Assembly: GCA_028699255.1 (NCBI GenBank)
Contig: JAQVUX010000004.1
Span: forward strand, 88,668 to 152,667
DNA length: 64,000 nucleotides
Direction: 5' to 3'
Source: Candidatus Omnitrophota bacterium
GTDB taxonomy: Bacteria; Omnitrophota; Gorgyraeia; 2-01-FULL-45-10
The notes beneath the pieces are model-generated. The model was not told where the DNA came from. It did no database searches and saw only the letters and a program-made list of their open reading frames with translations. A program made the translations under genes and the position numbers. Shown piece by piece: positions 5,065 to 61,219 of this stretch; the stretch's first letter is position 1, and the number at the start of each line of letters is the position of its first letter.

Positions 5065-5175
5065 ATACTTATGGAAAATATTACATCATATCCGGCCCTT
5101 TGGCAAGGGCGATTCAAAGTATTTGAAAAAACCGCCGCCCTGTGCTACAATTCTTTCAGCTCTTTGAACAATTGT

Positions 5176-5531
5176 TCCCCTGTAGCTCAGTCGGTAGAGC
5201 ATCTGGCTGTGCACGAGCGAAGCGCCGAGTGCAAAACTCGGCGTACAGCGCCTAAAGTTAGCAGCCTGCGACGGAAACGTCGCGGTGAAAAGCGAGTAAA
5301 TTCAGGGAAATCCGTCAATGTATAATTGGCGGGCTATCCTGAGCCAAGCCTCACAATTGTGGGGAAGGTGCAGAGACTAGAGACTCGCTACCTAAGTCCT
5401 TTCGTCATTGCGAGGCCCGAAGGGCCGAAGCAATCTCAAGGGATATGGTAATGGTATAGTCCGACTCTCCGGGTAACCGGAGTCAGATCGTAACCAGAGT
5501 GTCCGAGGTTCGAGTCCTCGCGGGGGAGCCA
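5176..5531 (+). tRNA. tRNA-Asn(GUU) interrupted by a group I intron; exons 5176-5210 and 5491-5531, CCA encoded
   Basis: The exons give the acceptor stem TCCCCTG/CGGGGGA, discriminator G73, D-arm GCTC-AGTCGGTA-GAGC and anticodon stem TCTGG/CCAGA. The anticodon loop CUGU|UAA and T-arm CGAGG-TTCGAGT-CCTCG follow. The spliced sequence is near-identical in layout to E. coli tRNA-Asn. Confidence 0.8.
5211..5490 (+). ncRNA. Group I intron in the tRNA-Asn anticodon loop, 280 nt, no ORF
   Basis: The intron follows a U and ends in G. It contains R-like CAGAGACTA, S-like TATAGTCC and P-like AATTCAGGGAAAT elements, and a P9-like hairpin CCGGGTAACCGG. Confidence 0.7.
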
Positions 5532-5635
5532 TATTAGACAGGTAAGCCTTTTGGAATCATTCTAAGAGGCTTACCGTCTATGGATTAACGACTTAGGTGG
5601 CAAGCGTGCAGTTCTAAGATGCTGTAGCCCCGACA

Positions 5636-5667
5636 TCCCAAGCACACTTTGCTTGGGATTTTTTATT
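5636..5667 (+). terminator. Rho-independent terminator after tRNA-Asn
   Basis: Stem TCCCAAGCA/TGCTTGGGA followed by TTTTTTATT. Confidence 0.7.
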
Positions 5668-5752
5668 AGCAGGATGTGCAAAAAATAGGACGTCTTTAGA
5701 TACATACTCATTTGTAAGTTTTACAGGCACGATAAAGTTATGAAAGAATAAA

Positions 5753-6610
5753 ATGCCATTAGTGACATTATTTATTAGTAGATTGATACTATCAGCAATT
5801 CTAATCTATGCATCTATACTTGTATGGACCAAGAACGTAGATTTGATACAATGGGCAAAAACAAAAATAGAATCGGCGTTACCTGTAAATCCCCAGAGTA
5901 GCGAAAAACCTTACATTGTTTCGCAATCAATAATAAAAGGCGTGTTACCTGTTTGCACAATTAAAAAAATACCCTATCAAGCTTTTGGGGAAAAGCTTGA
6001 GCAGGAAGAAGATGGACTTTATTTCATATTAGAAATATCAACTGAAAATCAGCCGTTAAATTTGAGCCATATCATTTTAAAGGGCGAATTATTTTTAAGT
6101 GGTAACGAAGGATTGTGGCTAAAAGGGGTGGCTGGCAAGACATTATACCAAATTAACAATCAAATAAGCGAAAAACGTCCTTACTATGCAATAAAATGGG
6201 TGACATCATCTCCAATCCCAAATAAATTTGATAAAAATGAAAGCACGCTTGCGCTCTTCGTTCTTAAGGAGCAGGATACTGAGCAAGGCAGAAGCTTCTT
6301 AAGTGATAGCGATGATCATCTTAAAAATTATGTAGGATACAAAACACTAGGACAAGCACCTAAACTGGAAAGCACACATCCAAATATACAGGAATTTTTA
6401 GAAAAAAAGATAGATGGTAATAAAACGTATTTTTCAAATATCCGGAAAGATTTTTTGAATGGGAATATTAAATGGTATCTAAAAATTGGGGAGAAAGAAA
6501 TTTTAATCCCAAACGGAAAAATTAAACCTATAAAATTTCAACCTCTTGGTCAGGAAGATGACATTTTAAAAGTATCTTTGGAAAGCATTTATTATCGGAA
6601 ATCGTATTAA
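5753..6610 (+). CDS. Hypothetical membrane-anchored protein in a low-GC island
   Basis: N-terminal TM helix, no recognisable domain, AT-rich codon usage distinct from flanking genes. Confidence 0.4.
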   Translation: MPLVTLFISRLILSAILIYASILVWTKNVDLIQWAKTKIESALPVNPQSSEKPYIVSQSIIKGVLPVCTIKKIPYQAFGEKLEQEEDGLYFILEISTENQPLNLSHIILKGELFLSGNEGLWLKGVAGKTLYQINNQISEKRPYYAIKWVTSSPIPNKFDKNESTLALFVLKEQDTEQGRSFLSDSDDHLKNYVGYKTLGQAPKLESTHPNIQEFLEKKIDGNKTYFSNIRKDFLNGNIKWYLKIGEKEILIPNGKIKPIKFQPLGQEDDILKVSLESIYYRKSY

Positions 6611-6744
6611 AAAGTTTACGCAATAAAGCTAAATTAGGTGCAGTATTTAGTAAGTCCAAAATAATATATTTAATTAAAATTTCATACTACTCCAACAGTT
6701 TCTCTGCCTCACTCGTATACAAAAACCCTAAGACTTAAGGTTAA

Positions 6745-6780
6745 GGGGACGGTTCTGGCGGCAATCCCAGACCTGTCCCT
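6745..6780. repeat. REP-like imperfect palindrome, copy A (GGGGACGGTTCTGGCGGCAATCCCAGACCTGTCCC)
   Basis: Near-identical to the copy at 8836-8870 and in inverted arrangement to the copy at 7345-7402. It abuts the RAYT gene. Confidence 0.7.
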
Positions 6781-7258
6781 AAAAGAACAGCTCGTCCAGC
6801 AACTTATCCTTTTTTCCTAGGATTCTTGCCTTGTAGCTACTCCAACCGTAATCTTCAGGTCTTAATACGATATTTGCTCTTACGGGATTATATTCTACGT
6901 AGCTTATGCAATTGATAAGGTATTTATCTTTCTGGATCACATGGCTTTTGTACCTATCCTGCCAAAAATGACCCACGCTCTTATATTTATACCTGAAGTA
7001 TTGAGCATAGGAAAGATTTATGCCGTGCATAGCCTTGCTTAAGAAAGAGGACTCCATAACCATATGCACATGGTTATTCATCAGGCACCAACCGTATAAC
7101 TTAAACTTATACCTATCCTTGTACTTGAGTAGAAACTTATAATATGCTCTACAGTCGTTCTCATCCTTAAATATGGCCTGTTTCTGATTGCCCCTTGTTA
7201 TTACATGATAACATACGTTATCCAATATGAGCCTTGCCTGTCTGGGCATACACACCAC
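6779..7258 (-). CDS. REP-associated tyrosine transposase (RAYT) / IS200-like Y1 HUH transposase
   Basis: HVHMVM HuH motif and a C-terminal Y-containing motif. The length is typical for TnpA_REP, and the gene is flanked by inverted REP hairpins. Confidence 0.75.
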   Translation of the reverse strand: MVCMPRQARLILDNVCYHVITRGNQKQAIFKDENDCRAYYKFLLKYKDRYKFKLYGWCLMNNHVHMVMESSFLSKAMHGINLSYAQYFRYKYKSVGHFWQDRYKSHVIQKDKYLINCISYVEYNPVRANIVLRPEDYGWSSYKARILGKKDKLLDELFF

Positions 7259-7344
7259 CTCCTACTATATAGACGGTCAAAACGCGATTTTGTTGCAAAT
7301 TATTTTAAAAAAGATTATGTAGAGGACAAGTTTGAAATTGTAAA

Positions 7345-7402
7345 GGGGACGGCTCTGAGATACAATATGGGACAGGTCTGGGATGTCGACCGGAACCGTC
7401 CC
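7345..7402. repeat. REP-like doublet, copy B, two hairpins in inverted orientation
   Basis: GGGGACGGCTCTGAG...GGGACAGGTCTGGG...CGGAACCGTCCC. The second and third segments are reverse complements of copy A segments. Confidence 0.65.
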
Positions 7403-7435
7403 TTATTACATACTTATTACATAGAGGAGATAGTT

Positions 7436-7783
7436 ATGAGTGAAATAAAAGAAATTACAGGGAAAATAATACAATTTAGGGATGAGCGTGACTGGATGCA
7501 ATTTCATGACCCAAAGAATATGGCCGTTTCGATAATACTCGAAGCTTCTGAGCTTTTAGAGCATTTCCAGTGGAAGACGAAGGAAGAGGTTGAGAAATAT
7601 GTTATGCAAAATAAGTCGGAAATCAAAGACGAAATTGCCGATATCGCGTTATACCTTTTTGAATTAGCCGATAATCTCGGGATCAGTTTGAATAGCGCTA
7701 TGGAGGAAAAACTTAAAAAGAATGCGACGAAATATCCGGTAGAAAAAGCTAAAGGCAAACATACAAAGTATAATAAATTATGA
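7436..7783 (+). CDS. MazG-like nucleotide pyrophosphohydrolase (small, YpjD/MazG family)
   Basis: EASELLEHFQW...EIADIALYLFELA motif of the all-alpha NTP pyrophosphatase family. RBS GAGGAGA lies before the ATG at 7436. The stop overlaps the rsmH ATG (ATGA). Confidence 0.65.
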   Translation: MSEIKEITGKIIQFRDERDWMQFHDPKNMAVSIILEASELLEHFQWKTKEEVEKYVMQNKSEIKDEIADIALYLFELADNLGISLNSAMEEKLKKNATKYPVEKAKGKHTKYNKL

Positions 7784-8952
7784 ACATTTCTTTAGGAGCG
7801 GATGGAACTCCCAAAAGAAAACGGCGCGTGCGTTATAAGGGCAGGAATCCCCGGCGTTTTGACGAAAAATATAAGGAACTCAATCCGGTAAAATACGCGG
7901 ATGATATCGAGAAGATCGTAAAGAGCGGTAAAACTCCAGCCGGAACGCATCGGCCTATCTGTGTTAAAGAGATCCTGGAAGCCCTTGATCCTAAGCCCGG
8001 GCAAACCGGCTTAGACGGCACTTTAGGGTTCGGCGGCCACACAACGGAACTCCTTCGATGCATTATGCCCGCCGGGCGCCTTTTTGCTATAGATGCCGAT
8101 CCGATCGAGTTAAAGCGTACCGCTACGCGCCTGCGAGCTCTGGGCTTCACCGACAAAGAACTTATTTTTCGGCAAATCAATTTCGCCGGTATCCCTAAAA
8201 TGCTTACTGACGCAGGCGGCGGGTTTGATTTTATTTTGGCGGATCTGGGCGTTTCGTCAATGCAATTAGACAATCCCGCCCGGGGGTTTACCTTTAAATG
8301 GGAGGGGCCGCTTGATATGAGATTTAATCCCGAACGCGGCCAGCCGGCCTCGGCTTTGATCAAGACAATCTCCGAAAAATCTCTGGAAAAAATACTTTTT
8401 ATTAACTCCGACGAACCTCATGCGAAAACGATAGCCGCGGCTATCCATAAGAACTGCCATAAAATTAACACAACTAAAGCGCTTGCGGATACCGTAAAAG
8501 AAGCGCTGACTACTGTAGCGCATGTAGGTTCCAAGGATGAGATAACCACGTCGATCCGCCGTACATTCCAGGCTTTACGCATTGAAGTTAACGACGAGTT
8601 TTCGGCGTTGGAGCAGTTTTTAAGGAATCTACCGATATGCCTTAAGCCCGACGGGCGAGTGGCTATTTTAACCTTTCACTCCGGTGAAGATAACAGGGTG
8701 GTTAAGTCTTTCCGGGATGGATTGAGATCGGGCATCTATTCTGAAATTTCCCGCGATCCAATAAGGCCGACGCCTAAGGAATGTTTTGATAACCCGCGTT
8801 CCAAGAGTGCAATATTACGCTGGGCTATAAAAAATGGGGACGGTTCTGACGGCAATCCCAGACCTGTCCCTCGTAGCGAGCTAAAAATCACACCAAGTTA
8901 CCCATCCTATGATATAATTACTTCCGATGAAAAAGAAAATCCTGATCCTTAA
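7780..8952 (+). CDS. rsmH: 16S rRNA (cytosine1402-N4)-methyltransferase RsmH with N- and C-terminal extensions
   Basis: DGTLGFGGH, DLGVSSMQLD, GPLDMRF, TFHSGEDNRVVK and NPRSKSAILRWA blocks. A ~55-aa basic N-terminal tail is present. The last ~40 codons read through an embedded REP copy. Confidence 0.8.
   Translation: MNISLGADGTPKRKRRVRYKGRNPRRFDEKYKELNPVKYADDIEKIVKSGKTPAGTHRPICVKEILEALDPKPGQTGLDGTLGFGGHTTELLRCIMPAGRLFAIDADPIELKRTATRLRALGFTDKELIFRQINFAGIPKMLTDAGGGFDFILADLGVSSMQLDNPARGFTFKWEGPLDMRFNPERGQPASALIKTISEKSLEKILFINSDEPHAKTIAAAIHKNCHKINTTKALADTVKEALTTVAHVGSKDEITTSIRRTFQALRIEVNDEFSALEQFLRNLPICLKPDGRVAILTFHSGEDNRVVKSFRDGLRSGIYSEISRDPIRPTPKECFDNPRSKSAILRWAIKNGDGSDGNPRPVPRSELKITPSYPSYDIITSDEKENPDP
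8836..8870. repeat. REP-like palindrome, copy C, embedded in the 3' end of rsmH
   Basis: GGGGACGGTTCTGACGGCAATCCCAGACCTGTCCC, one mismatch relative to copy A. Confidence 0.7.
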
Positions 8953-9542: not shown

Positions 9543-10286
9543 ATGAAGAAGAGCCTGATTTTCAGCAGTATATTAGTCTCGGCGTTTTTAGTTGTACATA
9601 ACGTTTATGCTCAGGAACCCGCAATTGATTATAAGCAATTGATAGCTAAATGCAGTGAGGCAATTAAACAGGCAAAATCATACAATGCTAAGATGGAATA
9701 CGCAAACTCCTTTACAATTAACTCGCAGGAGAACAAGGGTAATTCCGCGGAGTTAAGCATAGCTTTTATAAGCCCGGACAAATTTAAGATAGCGCAAGTT
9801 ATAGATGAGGGCTCGGATGAGAAGTTGTGGGACGGCTGGATAGTTATAGGCGATGATTATTATGTTCTTAAGCCGGTTTTCGGATGGGCAAAGGAAGATG
9901 ACGATAATCGCAAAACAATGTGCAGAGCTTACTCTCCCGAAGGCATTATAAAACAGTTAGCAGAGATCGAAAAGGGGTACAGGAGAGATTCGATAAGCTC
10001 TGCTACTAAAGACGGAATAGAATATTTTGTAATCAAATATTTATTCGGCAAAGAATCAATTAATGTCGAATCTTTACCGCCGGAATTAAAAGATAGCAAA
10101 ATAAACGGAACATATGAAATTTGGATCAATAAAAATAATTATTTACCGGTAAAACAATCGGAGGAAGTTTCCTATTATTCGAATGAGCGGAATAAGGGGA
10201 CTTCATCAGCGGTCACAAATTATTTCGCATATAATGATGATAAGATAAAAATCGACGTGCCTGTGCCCGGCGATAAGACTTTTTAA
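9543..10286 (+). CDS. Hypothetical exported protein
   Basis: Signal peptide, no motif recognised. Confidence 0.4.
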   Translation: MKKSLIFSSILVSAFLVVHNVYAQEPAIDYKQLIAKCSEAIKQAKSYNAKMEYANSFTINSQENKGNSAELSIAFISPDKFKIAQVIDEGSDEKLWDGWIVIGDDYYVLKPVFGWAKEDDDNRKTMCRAYSPEGIIKQLAEIEKGYRRDSISSATKDGIEYFVIKYLFGKESINVESLPPELKDSKINGTYEIWINKNNYLPVKQSEEVSYYSNERNKGTSSAVTNYFAYNDDKIKIDVPVPGDKTF

Positions 10287-10350
10287 CAGGATACCATAAA
10301 TTAAAATGGCAGTTTAAGCGGGGGGATTTTGGCGTGGTAGGGGAGGATAT

Positions 10351-10965
10351 ATGATTTCCTGCCCCTATCATCCTCATCCGTGTTATAATTACAGCATGCA
10401 GACATATTCCAATCGTAAGCATTGCATTCATTTCCGCCGCAACAGGACTATCAAAACATTCATAATAACCGCCTGCCTCGTTTTTTTATTTACGCTTCCC
10501 GCAATGTGCATATCTACCGGTGAGAAAGCGCCTTATTTTAAGATAACTTCGGGCAGTAGTGAAGTTCTTACGGCCGATATGTTGAAAGATAAAATAGCTG
10601 TTATCTTTTACGAGACAAAAGATACAAAAGAAAAGAACAGGGCACTCAAAGAAGATCTAAACGCTTTTTACAAAGAGCGATCCGCGAAAATACAAAAAGA
10701 AATAATGAAAGTGGCCGTTATACGATGCTCTGCCTTTATGCCGAATATATGGCGACAAAGTTTGCGTGAGAATTCCAAAAAAGAAGGCATGATTATATAC
10801 GGAGATTGGGATGGTGCCATGCAAAATGAGTACGGTCTGGCCGTTGGAGAAAGTAATTTTATTATTATTGATAAGAACGGCATTGTTATATATACGAGGG
10901 CAGGATTTATTCCAAAAGAAGATTTTCCGGCAATAAGAAATATTTTAAATGGTGCAGGAGAATAA
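10351..10965 (+). CDS. Hypothetical membrane-anchored protein, possibly thioredoxin-fold without CxxC
   Basis: RBS AGGGGAGGA before the ATG, one TM helix, redoxin-like spacing but no catalytic Cys pair. Confidence 0.35.
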   Translation: MISCPYHPHPCYNYSMQTYSNRKHCIHFRRNRTIKTFIITACLVFLFTLPAMCISTGEKAPYFKITSGSSEVLTADMLKDKIAVIFYETKDTKEKNRALKEDLNAFYKERSAKIQKEIMKVAVIRCSAFMPNIWRQSLRENSKKEGMIIYGDWDGAMQNEYGLAVGESNFIIIDKNGIVIYTRAGFIPKEDFPAIRNILNGAGE

Positions 10966-14091: not shown

Positions 14092-15195
14092 TCAATTTAT
14101 GTTAAAATCTCTAAGATCGAAACCTAATCCTTTGCAAATCGCGACCGCTTTTGTTGTAATATCATTTTTTAGGGCATCTTCTTTTTCCATCGCTTTCTCC
14201 CGTAACAACAACCCGCTTCTTACGAATGTCGCAAAAACAAATCCATCCTGACTTATGCCGGTTTTTTTTATTGCGTCATAGTTGTTTAGGACATGAATCG
14301 TACAGTCAAATCTTGTGTTTACGCCGGATTCGGATTGCCAACCAATGCCATTTTTAAGAGCCTCGACAAATCTTACAGGGTCATATTTTACGTAGTCGAA
14401 AAAATAAAGCACCTCGACGTTTTTGACGTCGAACGGAATTTGCAGAAAAGGGTTAAGTTTTTTCATCCCCTTAATTATCCCGAAGCTATAATTTTCCCGT
14501 ATGCAAAAATATATATACCTCAGGCTATGGTAGAAAAATAGCCATATATTAAGTAGGTTAAGATTTGACCCCGGAAATAGAGAAAAAACTTTAGATATCT
14601 GCGTCATTACTTTTTTTATGGTATTTTTACCATAAGTATTTCTAGAGGGAGGTTTCGAATAGACAAGAGATTTACTTTCAAAAAGAGTGGCTCCCCATAA
14701 TATAAAATGTATCTTTCGCTTAAAACATTCTTTCATTACCGCCGCCCTAATATCGTTTTCGCAGTAGGTGCACAAATTTACAAATCTTCTTAGGTACTTT
14801 GAGATGTAGAGCATTTCTATGACTATTTGATGACGAAATTTGGAATTGGTTATTATGAGATCGACGTTTAAGTTTTTGCAGATATTTTTAACGTTTTGAA
14901 TTGCGGTTTGAGGCACAAAACCGGAATCGAAAAATACCGCCAGAGGCTTAAGGCTGAGATTCTTGACGGCGTACATCAATACATATGAACTATCCTTTCC
15001 GCCGCTTATTGGTACGACGCAATCGTACTCGTAGTTTTTTTGCGACCTTATTTTCTCTAAAAGCTTTTTCGGGCCCAATTTACCGTCTAAACCGTATGCA
15101 GATCGGTCGAAGTTTCTGCAAAATGTGCATAATCCATTTTCTATAGTAACTCCTGGGCAAGAATCCGGTATTATGCATCTTCGGCATATTTGCAT
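14092..15195 (-). CDS. PP-loop ATP-pyrophosphatase, N-acetyl-sugar amidotransferase-like (LPS/glycan biosynthesis)
   Basis: N-terminal CxxC...CxxC zinc ribbon followed by the SGGKDS PP-loop. Confidence 0.5.
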   Translation of the reverse strand: MQICRRCIIPDSCPGVTIENGLCTFCRNFDRSAYGLDGKLGPKKLLEKIRSQKNYEYDCVVPISGGKDSSYVLMYAVKNLSLKPLAVFFDSGFVPQTAIQNVKNICKNLNVDLIITNSKFRHQIVIEMLYISKYLRRFVNLCTYCENDIRAAVMKECFKRKIHFILWGATLFESKSLVYSKPPSRNTYGKNTIKKVMTQISKVFSLFPGSNLNLLNIWLFFYHSLRYIYFCIRENYSFGIIKGMKKLNPFLQIPFDVKNVEVLYFFDYVKYDPVRFVEALKNGIGWQSESGVNTRFDCTIHVLNNYDAIKKTGISQDGFVFATFVRSGLLLREKAMEKEDALKNDITTKAVAICKGLGFDLRDFNIN

Positions 15196-45796: not shown

Positions 45797-46244
45797 GGGG
45801 GTGAAAGGTATCGACTCAGATACGCAGAGCACAAGCAGCATGTAGAGGTTGCTAGGAGGCCTCTTGGCGCAAGCCATTCCTACGGTAACGTGGGGATAAA
45901 ACACCTGGCAAAAAATCAAATGCTGAAAACGTAAAAGTTCCAGCAACGGTGAACGAACTCCTAAGCACCATGCAAGTGGTGCCGGGGCCAGTTCTACCGG
46001 TAGCGTTACCTTTATAAGGTAACCCGTCAGCCGGCCTATTTCCGCGGGGCCGGGTCTGGCGACACTAGCGGGATAGTCCGACGGTGTTTAGCCTTTGGCG
46101 CTTTCGGGCGAAGCTTTCAAAGGATACCTTTTCGAAATTCCGCCTACTGAAGTTCGAAAGGGGAAATTAAAGAGCAGGATAAACATGTAGCGGCTTATGT
46201 TTTGATGTTTGAGGACGGCGGTTCAAATCCGCCCACCTCCACCA
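45797..46244 (+). ncRNA. ssrA: tmRNA (ssrA), about 448 nt, CCA encoded
   Basis: Lies immediately downstream of smpB. The 5' GGGGGUG...GGUAUCGAC pairs with a 3' tRNA-like end: T-arm GGCGG-UUCAAAU-CCGCC, then CACCUCC-A-CCA. The tag reading frame could not be read confidently by eye. Confidence 0.7.
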
Positions 46245-56252: not shown

Positions 56253-56319
56253 CTTATATTGACACCATATCTCTCGAGGCTTATAATTAACATAAATAAG
56301 CTATATTCCTTTGGCTACA

Positions 56320-56456
56320 TATAAAAGGAAGCGGGGGAACCAAGCCACGGTCTACGATAGATCTTGGGGCGAATATCTAAAATATCTACAATGTAGTAGA
56401 TTAGGGTCACTCAACCCGAGCCCGACAGCTAACCCCGTAAGCTAACATGAGAGAAT
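56320..56456 (+). promoter_or_regulatory. Candidate c-di-AMP riboswitch (ydaO/kimA class) in the kdp leader
   Basis: GCGGGGGAACCA, UUGGGGCGAAUAUC, and GGGUCACUCAACCCGAGCCCGACAGCUAACCCCGUAAGC resemble conserved ydaO-motif segments as recalled from memory. An intrinsic terminator follows. Confidence 0.55.
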
Positions 56457-56458
56457 GC

Positions 56459-60640: not shown

Positions 60641-61219
60641 ATGTTTAGAGAACAGTTAAAATCTGCCATTCTTGTTTTTATAATATTGACGATAATCACA
60701 GGAGTTCTCTACCCGCTATTTGTAACAGGAATTGCTCAAGCTTTTTTCCATACCAAAGCTAACGGTAGCCTTATATATCGAAATGGAAAAATAATTGGTT
60801 CAGCCCTTATAGGACAACCATTTGATGATCCTAAATATCTATGGGGACGGCTGTCGGCCACATCGCCCGTGCCTTATAATTCTAATTCGTCATCGGGCTC
60901 AAATATTGGGCCGTCGAATGGAGCACTTTTAGAAACTGTAAAGTCCCGTATTGAAAAACTGCGTGCAGCCGATCCTAAAAACAAGATGCCTATACCCGTA
61001 GATTTAGTGACATCATCGGCGAGCGGGCTTGATCCGCATATAAGTAAGGCTTCCGCTTATTATCAGGTTCCTCGAATAGCGAAACAACTAGGGCTCTCTG
61101 TAAATATTGTAAAAAACATTGTTGATCAAAACGCAAAAGGGCGTCTCTTTGGTTTAATCGGAGAGCCGGTTGTAAACGTATTGAAGGTAAATATGGATTT
61201 GGATTCATACAAAAAATAG
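60641..61219 (+). CDS. kdpC: K+-transporting ATPase subunit KdpC
   Basis: Single N-terminal TM helix. SGLDPHIS motif. Confidence 0.85.
   Translation: MFREQLKSAILVFIILTIITGVLYPLFVTGIAQAFFHTKANGSLIYRNGKIIGSALIGQPFDDPKYLWGRLSATSPVPYNSNSSSGSNIGPSNGALLETVKSRIEKLRAADPKNKMPIPVDLVTSSASGLDPHISKASAYYQVPRIAKQLGLSVNIVKNIVDQNAKGRLFGLIGEPVVNVLKVNMDLDSYKK

Follow-up and report, generated by a model that had tools for sequence, protein, structure and literature searches.

An AT-rich stretch beside a tRNA-Asn gene of an Omnitrophota bacterium: a probable mosaic of an accessory gene, a REPtron and an ancestral MazG-rsmH pair

ORGANIZATION OF THE REGION

The region described here occupies positions 5650–7783 of a 64 kb stretch of contig JAQVUX010000004.1 from a Candidatus Omnitrophota bacterium; the whole 64 kb is referred to below as the window. 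It extends from the end of a tRNA-Asn gene to the start of rsmH, and its only open reading frames (ORFs) are a gene for a 285-aa membrane-anchored protein, a gene for a tyrosine transposase associated with repetitive extragenic palindromes (REPs), hereafter REP-associated tyrosine transposase (RAYT), and a gene for a small MazG-like nucleoside triphosphate (NTP) pyrophosphohydrolase. An earlier note, made from the letters of the sequence, had read these together as a single horizontally acquired islet. All the features which it listed are present, with coordinates that agree to within one base. They are given here together with their neighbours; GC3 denotes GC content at third codon positions, and loci and contigs used for comparison carry labels such as L004.

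5176–5531, + strand: tRNA-Asn(GTT), marking the left side of the region; a 280-nt group I intron (5211–5490) interrupts its anticodon loop
5635–5668, + strand: intrinsic-terminator-like hairpin with a T-run, after tRNA-Asn (hairpin 5635–5659, then the following bases)
5753–6610, + strand: 285-aa protein with a membrane anchor, from a rare and uncharacterised family (GC 0.332, GC3 0.283)
6699–6729, + strand: putative 31-nt relic of the spacer downstream of tRNA-Asn in L004 (28/31 identical to L004 4576–4606)
6746–6779, + strand: REP hairpin, forward, 34 nt, overlapping the RAYT stop codon by 1 nt
6779–7249, − strand: RAYT, an HUH/Y1 transposase of 156 aa (Y1_Tnp, NF047646)
7346–7402, − strand: REP doublet upstream of RAYT (half-arm 7346–7358, 10-nt spacer, full REP 7369–7402)
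7436–7783, + strand: MazG-like (DCTPP1-type, all-alpha) NTP pyrophosphohydrolase, 115 aa (PF12643)
7780–8952, + strand: rsmH, 16S rRNA m4C1402 methyltransferase, 390 aa predicted (TIGR00006, 224.5 bits)
8837–8870, + strand: third REP copy, solo and forward, inside the 3′ end of the rsmH ORF (half-site pattern and alignment)

The GC content of the region is 0.355, compared with a mean of 0.466 (SD 0.032) for all 2134-nt segments of the 64 kb sequence. This is the lowest value of any such segment (fraction at or below, 0.0003), and the sharp drop between tRNA-Asn and rsmH noted previously is therefore real. Genes with GC 0.37–0.40 and GC3 0.32–0.41 are also found at 9543–10965, 14092–15195 and 60641–61219, so compositional heterogeneity is not unique to this region. 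Per-gene codon-usage divergence did not set the 285-aa gene, RAYT or the MazG-like gene apart from other short genes, and this measure was dropped for that reason. ORF calls with Pfam and NCBIfam searches revealed no integrase or recombinase gene among the ORFs of the region. The 23-nt 3′ end of the tRNA is found once in the window at up to three mismatches, and there is thus no direct repeat at the distal border. No viral link was detected by Foldseek comparison with viral structures or by scans of viral contigs for the REP and the 285-aa family.

A RAYT GENE BETWEEN INVERTED REP HAIRPINS

Translation of RAYT from its ATG gives 156 aa, the length of the homologues; a GTG at 7258 would give 159 aa. 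The protein matches Pfam Y1_Tnp (E 2.4e-14), and its HUH motif is the HVH within HVHMVM. Amongst NCBIfam models, REP_Tyr_transpos (NF047646) is the best by far, and the IS200 TnpA model (NF033573), which has a cut-off of 55 bits, gives no more than 16.6. The sole match amongst solved structures is E. coli TnpA-REP (PDB 4ER8). In this alignment, H-V-H falls on H-M-H and the Tyr of ISYVEYNPV on the Tyr of VDYIYINPV, and the catalytic Tyr aligns with Y115 of 4ER8 (residues counted along the alignment). RAYT has a GC3 of 0.50, which is normal for the window. There are 847 homologues at E≤1e-10, nearly all of 156–157 aa, and those few with a named source come from Omnitrophota. Their identity grades from 97% to 57%, and most clusters are found on one to three contigs, with no identical multi-copy sets.

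The REPs at 6746–6779 and 7369–7402 are each 34 nt long, 85% complementary and mutually inverted, and they bracket RAYT. Both hairpins and their inverted orientation had been recognized in the earlier note; the extents are revised here to these coordinates, with the half-arm at 7346–7358 in addition. A 13-nt REP half-site pattern has eight matches in the window, where 0.48 are expected, and none of 100 shuffled sequences reaches eight. The aligned copies yield the consensus TA(A/G)-GGGACGGTTCYG-N6-ATCCCAGACCTGTCCC, in which the loop is variable and an asymmetry of the stem (one G-T and one T-C position) is retained. As single-stranded DNA the REPs are predicted to fold into hairpins of −7.7 to −9.4 kcal/mol.

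The same REP-RAYT-REP layout is present around homologues of 97% (L099), 78% (L100) and 72% (L101) identity. The neighbours are different in each case, being an MBOAT gene in L099, pilin genes in L100 and a TPR/C39 gene in L101. The doublet arrangement of half-arm plus full REP also recurs in L099. A search of 241 million metagenome contig records with the exact REP pattern identified 15 contigs with GC contents of 0.38–0.54. Six of the 15 have an adjacent RAYT or RAYT remnant, and several multi-kb contigs have none. Solo REPs without a RAYT occur at 8837–8870 in the window and in contigs L084, L086 and L095. The REP is nearly invariant across hosts whose RAYTs share only 67–78% identity. By sequence and layout, RAYT with its inverted REPs is a genuine REPtron, as had been proposed, and the recurrence of the layout in other genomes bears this out.

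Known REPtron or RAYT-REP(IN) systems include E. coli TnpA-REP (PDB 4ER8) and the RAYTs of groups 2 and 3 in Pseudomonas (PMC5581495; PMC3116915). Traits described for RAYT-REP systems include a single RAYT copy per genome and flanking 16-mers that are very frequent throughout the genome (PMC5581495). Inverted flanking REPs, a conserved layout and solo copies are defining traits of such systems, as in the same study. The present unit is like the known systems in its HUH/Y1 transposase, which is about 156 aa long and has H-x-H and a Tyr on the C-terminal helix, and in the imperfect palindrome whose inverted copies lie on either side of the RAYT gene. Solo copies are likewise found elsewhere, for the most part at gene ends, and the protein diverges gradually across genomes. 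In contrast, the host here belongs to Omnitrophota, the REP sequence is unrelated to enterobacterial or pseudomonad REPs and is almost invariant in spite of RAYT divergence, the copy number appears low, and the whole unit is found at different loci in different genomes. REP/RAYT systems have so far been studied almost only in Proteobacteria, and the present case extends them to Omnitrophota; no link between RAYTs and Omnitrophica was found in the literature searched.

If it works like the E. coli and IS200/IS605 enzymes, RAYT would recognize the folded GGGACGGTTCYG-N6-ATCCCAGACCTGTCCC hairpin on single-stranded DNA and cut beside it. It would then paste REP copies elsewhere; one such copy has landed at the rsmH stop codon and lengthened the ORF.

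Two contigs carry truncated forms of RAYT. In L093 (760–1123), a 98%-identical RAYT is cut to residues 62–156 and a REP abuts the break, as if a REPtron were decaying in this near relative. In L088, all that is left of RAYT beside the REPs is a 43-aa remnant.

A REP COPY WITHIN THE 3′ END OF rsmH

The methyltransferase domain of RsmH ends near 8829, and the last 33 codons of the ORF consist of the third REP and former intergenic DNA. In every one of the relatives, RsmH stops 2–10 codons after the motif LRWAI(K/R). In the window, the REP begins directly after LRWAIKN, and the ORF continues for 33 codons, overlapping the gene that follows. L004, the closest relative, is 93.5% identical to the window at the nucleotide level over 7423–8847, and both ends of this homologous segment lie at REP edges. 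At the REP site L004 has GGGGACAGTTCTAT, which resembles the left arm of the REP and could be either a preferred REP target or a REP remnant. As read from these alignments, a REP copy has remodelled the C-terminus of RsmH and extended the ORF by 33 codons. It is a concrete example of how the C-terminus encoded by a core gene can be rewritten by a REP.

Two further observations concern rsmH. The gene is situated outside a dcw/mraZ context in the window, and RsmH has a conserved basic N-terminal extension of about 55 aa before the methyltransferase domain.

THE MazG-LIKE GENE IS PAIRED WITH rsmH

The MazG-like protein matches PF12643 (E 3.4e-21; 75.7 bits, gathering score 27) and, amongst solved structures, PDB 4QGP (E 4.7e-22) and DCTPP1/RS21-C6 (E 1.3e-17). 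Its ORF starts at 7436, not 7437, and its stop codon overlaps the rsmH ATG (7780) as ATGA. The presence of a small MazG-type gene overlapping the start of rsmH is thus confirmed, with the start shifted by one base.

For comparison with relatives, 80 loci were fetched around RsmH relatives. In 13 related loci of Omnitrophota type, rsmH is immediately preceded by a MazG-like gene, at 40–97% aa identity (81–97% in L004–L010, L012 and L013; 70–71% in L023 and L025; 40–42% in L018 and L020); in L015 such a gene is just downstream of rsmH. In eleven of these relatives (L004–L010, L012, L013, L023 and L025), the GC content of the MazG-like gene is 0.34–0.42, compared with 0.44–0.54 for rsmH. L004–L008, which are the five closest relatives, retain the ATGA overlap. 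Given its conserved place upstream of rsmH, its equally low GC content in relatives and the conserved overlap, the MazG-like gene is, on this comparison, ancestral and its AT-richness intrinsic. Its inclusion in an acquired islet is therefore not upheld.

In common with DCTPP1/RS21-C6 and the archaeal protein 4QGP, the product consists of one MazG-like domain, about 115 aa long (E 1e-17 to 5e-22); unlike them, it is encoded in this clade by a gene that forms a fixed, overlapping operon with rsmH. A DCTPP1-like MazG protein would act as a house-cleaning pyrophosphatase, and in this clade its gene is an old, translationally coupled partner of rsmH. A more specific role, in which it would be a dedicated partner of RsmH that sanitizes N4-methylated cytidine nucleotides from the turnover of N4-methylcytidine (m4C)-containing rRNA before they enter DNA or RNA synthesis, is speculative and, in our view, quite unlikely. 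A literature search found nothing on a connection between MazG and RsmH.

MazG-like and rsmH genes form a conserved, often overlapping pair in this Omnitrophota clade. Within the REP doublet, at 7338–7366, is a promoter-like sequence, TTGTAA-17-TACAAT (9/12 matches), directed towards MazG-rsmH; its bases recur in the REP doublet of L099, and the transcription start of the pair would be expected near 7373. This site may drive the pair, with the REPtron now 33 nt upstream. That the REP doublet supplies the promoter is a separate suggestion from the proposed role of the protein, and is equally tentative.

THE 285-aa MEMBRANE-PROTEIN GENE

The 285-aa protein, identical to NCBI entry PHS46_04520, has a hydrophobic N-terminus and no match in Pfam, NCBIfam or PADLOC; a weak match to one unannotated PHROG was obtained (E 4e-4). 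It had been described as an orphan. Two homologues were found at 61% identity, however, and a profile search of 1.84 billion representatives identified 40 clusters at E≤1e-3. Members are mostly of 250–290 aa with a hydrophobic N-terminus, and the conserved motifs include KRPYxxIxW, FTL, YxGY and PK. The family is sparse and patchy, occurring in clusters of one to three members from bins labelled as different phyla.

An AlphaFold model built on a three-sequence alignment was unusable (pLDDT 48), and the model used here was obtained with a 40-sequence alignment (pLDDT 90, pTM 0.77). The protein is predicted to consist of a long N-terminal membrane helix followed by two beta-sandwich lobes. The membrane anchor and the lack of a recognizable sequence domain are in accord with the previous description, to which a predicted fold can now be added. 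In a Foldseek search of the PDB, the best 50 matches were all of the arrestin or VPS26 type, and all were weak (best E 4e-3, TM 0.17–0.22, root mean square deviation about 18 Å, identity below 10%). The two-lobe beta-sandwich resembles these proteins; the N-terminal membrane helix, the weakness of the matches and the lack of any Pfam arrestin or Spo0M match set it apart. An arrestin-like fold is thus a lead and not a result. A small membrane-protein family is hereby defined which is structurally predictable but of unassigned function.

The 285-aa gene is the most AT-rich of the window, and its GC3 of 0.283 is about 3 SD below the window mean (0.514, SD 0.076). Its foreign composition and its position following tRNA-Asn are both as the earlier note had claimed. 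The homologues have a GC content of 0.33 in contigs of GC 0.37, 0.42 and 0.47, and this fits the neighbouring genes only in the low-GC contig L002. In L004 the tRNA-Asn gene is 3.4 kb upstream of MazG-rsmH, and the interval contains four unrelated genes and lacks the 285-aa gene; the comparison with the tRNA-Asn locus of a relative, suggested in the earlier note, thus shows different genes at this position. The neighbours of tRNA-Asn and MazG-rsmH in L004 (upstream, in the interval and downstream) have no counterparts in the window. These L004 genes were also not found in the other fetched loci, except for weak SpoU matches (27–28%) in L064, L065 and L077.

To the right of the gene, the 31-nt match to the L004 spacer has a local alignment score of 47, compared with a mean of 18.6 (SD 2.6, maximum 29) for shuffled sequences. 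From this alignment, we infer that the relic marks the right edge of the 285-aa gene insertion. The foreign GC3, the absence from the L004 interval and the relic together suggest that the gene was inserted, most likely as a cassette of about 1 kb, into the spacer downstream of tRNA-Asn. Its composition matches low-GC Omnitrophota lineages. The 285-aa gene is probably imported, or at least a variable accessory gene.

A more distant homologue (44% identity) is encoded in L105 (2479–9141), a metagenome-assembled genome labelled Bacteroidetes, within an AT-rich run of unannotated genes. It adjoins a gene for a SIR2_2-domain protein, and no PADLOC model matched the genes of that run.

ORIGIN OF THE AT-RICH REGION

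The AT-rich stretch is best explained as a mosaic, in which a variable accessory gene, a REPtron and the ancestral MazG-rsmH pair are three independent units and no integrase-mediated island is involved. We put the probability of this interpretation at about 0.75. Several results weigh against it, or against the part of it that concerns the 285-aa gene. Left of this gene, a collinear 25-nt match to the L004 spacer is non-significant (score 22, null maximum 27). Synteny flanking MazG-rsmH is broken on both sides in every relative, so that insertion of the 285-aa gene is not cleanly separable from general rearrangement. In L002, the 285-aa homologue also follows an intron-split tRNA-Asn, and the L003 homologue, like the 285-aa gene of the window, has a VF530 gene nearby; the linkage may therefore be old and vertical. 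With regard to the REPtron, the NF047646 score of RAYT (77 bits) is 3 bits short of the cut-off of 80, and the 64 kb window contains one RAYT and three REP loci, all within 2.2 kb of RAYT.

Acquisition of the whole region as one islet at tRNA-Asn, with the 285-aa gene, the REPtron and the MazG-like gene all included, would explain why no other 2.1 kb of the window is as AT-rich, why the stretch adjoins a tRNA gene and why L004 has different genes between tRNA-Asn and MazG. An argument of this kind holds for the 285-aa gene, which resembles the cargo of a tRNA-associated island in lying directly downstream of a tRNA, in its deviant composition and in its variability between close relatives. It does not hold for the remainder: the MazG-rsmH pair with the same composition in 13 relatives largely refutes it for MazG, the GC3 of RAYT is normal, and the REPtron occurs alone in other contexts. 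Unlike a tRNA-associated island, moreover, the stretch has neither an integrase nor a direct repeat of the tRNA 3′ end, and the cargo is a single gene. In the case of MazG, the relatives have the same gene, at the same locus and with the same composition; the 285-aa gene is absent from the L004 interval. Three adjacent units with different histories are not one acquired islet, and we regard this explanation as highly improbable. If, instead, there was no recent acquisition, the 285-aa gene would be an old vertical neighbour of tRNA-Asn, AT-rich by constraint, and the relatives would differ by loss or rearrangement. The recurrence of the tRNA-Asn linkage in L002 is consistent with this, as is the similar divergence of the VF530 gene and the nearby homologue in L003 (59% vs 61%). 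The GC content of 0.33 in three hosts, at only 61% identity, would likewise imply no amelioration over a long time. However, the gene is absent from the L004 interval, the family is extremely sparse, with its small clusters spread over bins labelled as different phyla, and, by the position of the 31-nt relic, the gene interrupts a spacer that was once contiguous. Purely vertical descent is thus rather unlikely.

The independence of the RAYT unit could have another basis, namely that it is an ordinary autonomous IS200/IS605 insertion sequence whose hairpins are its own ends rather than the REPs of a domesticated transposase. IS200/IS605 TnpA proteins share the Y1_Tnp fold, HUH chemistry and subterminal hairpins recognized as single-stranded DNA. 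The occurrence of the unit in different neighbourhoods across genomes, the seemingly low REP copy number (three loci in 64 kb, all near RAYT) and the small number of metagenome contigs with the exact pattern (15 of 241 million records) would fit such an element. The two flanks, however, are not distinct left and right ends but inverted copies of one hairpin, as in a REPtron, and hairpins also occur without the gene. In addition, the IS200 model scores far below the RAYT model (16.6 vs 77 bits), and the graded identity of the RAYT clusters, mostly on one to three contigs and without identical multi-copy sets, also speaks against it. An IS200/IS605 element is unlikely on these grounds, and the mosaic interpretation, with a REPtron as one of its units, is preferred. 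The region is a cautionary case, in that a sharp GC trough beside a tRNA gene can be made up of an AT-rich gene of ancestral origin together with a mobile element and a single imported gene.

THE tRNA-Asn INTRON AND OTHER FEATURES OF THE WINDOW

A promoter-like site is present at 5123–5151, ahead of tRNA-Asn. ARAGORN detected no tRNA near 5200–5530 in the raw window, because a group I intron (Rfam RF00028, 70.5 bits, match at 5243–5483) interrupts the gene between anticodon-loop positions 35 and 36. When exons 5176–5210 and 5491–5531 are joined in silico, they give a 76-nt canonical tRNA-Asn(GTT) that ARAGORN accepts. A literature search found no group I intron in a bacterial tRNA-Asn. The tRNA-Asn gene of L004 (4160–4235) has no intron and differs from the window gene at several stem positions. 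That of L002 (8432–8778) contains a different insertion, of 271 nt and in the D-loop, for which the group I signal is only weak (19.5 bits, E 0.01).

Elsewhere in the window, at 45797–46244 and 56289–56458, there are a tmRNA with an unusually long predicted tag peptide, AENVKVPATVNELLSTMQVVPGPVLPVALPL, and a c-di-AMP riboswitch. A c-di-AMP riboswitch is also present in L003, upstream of TrkH/TrkA genes.

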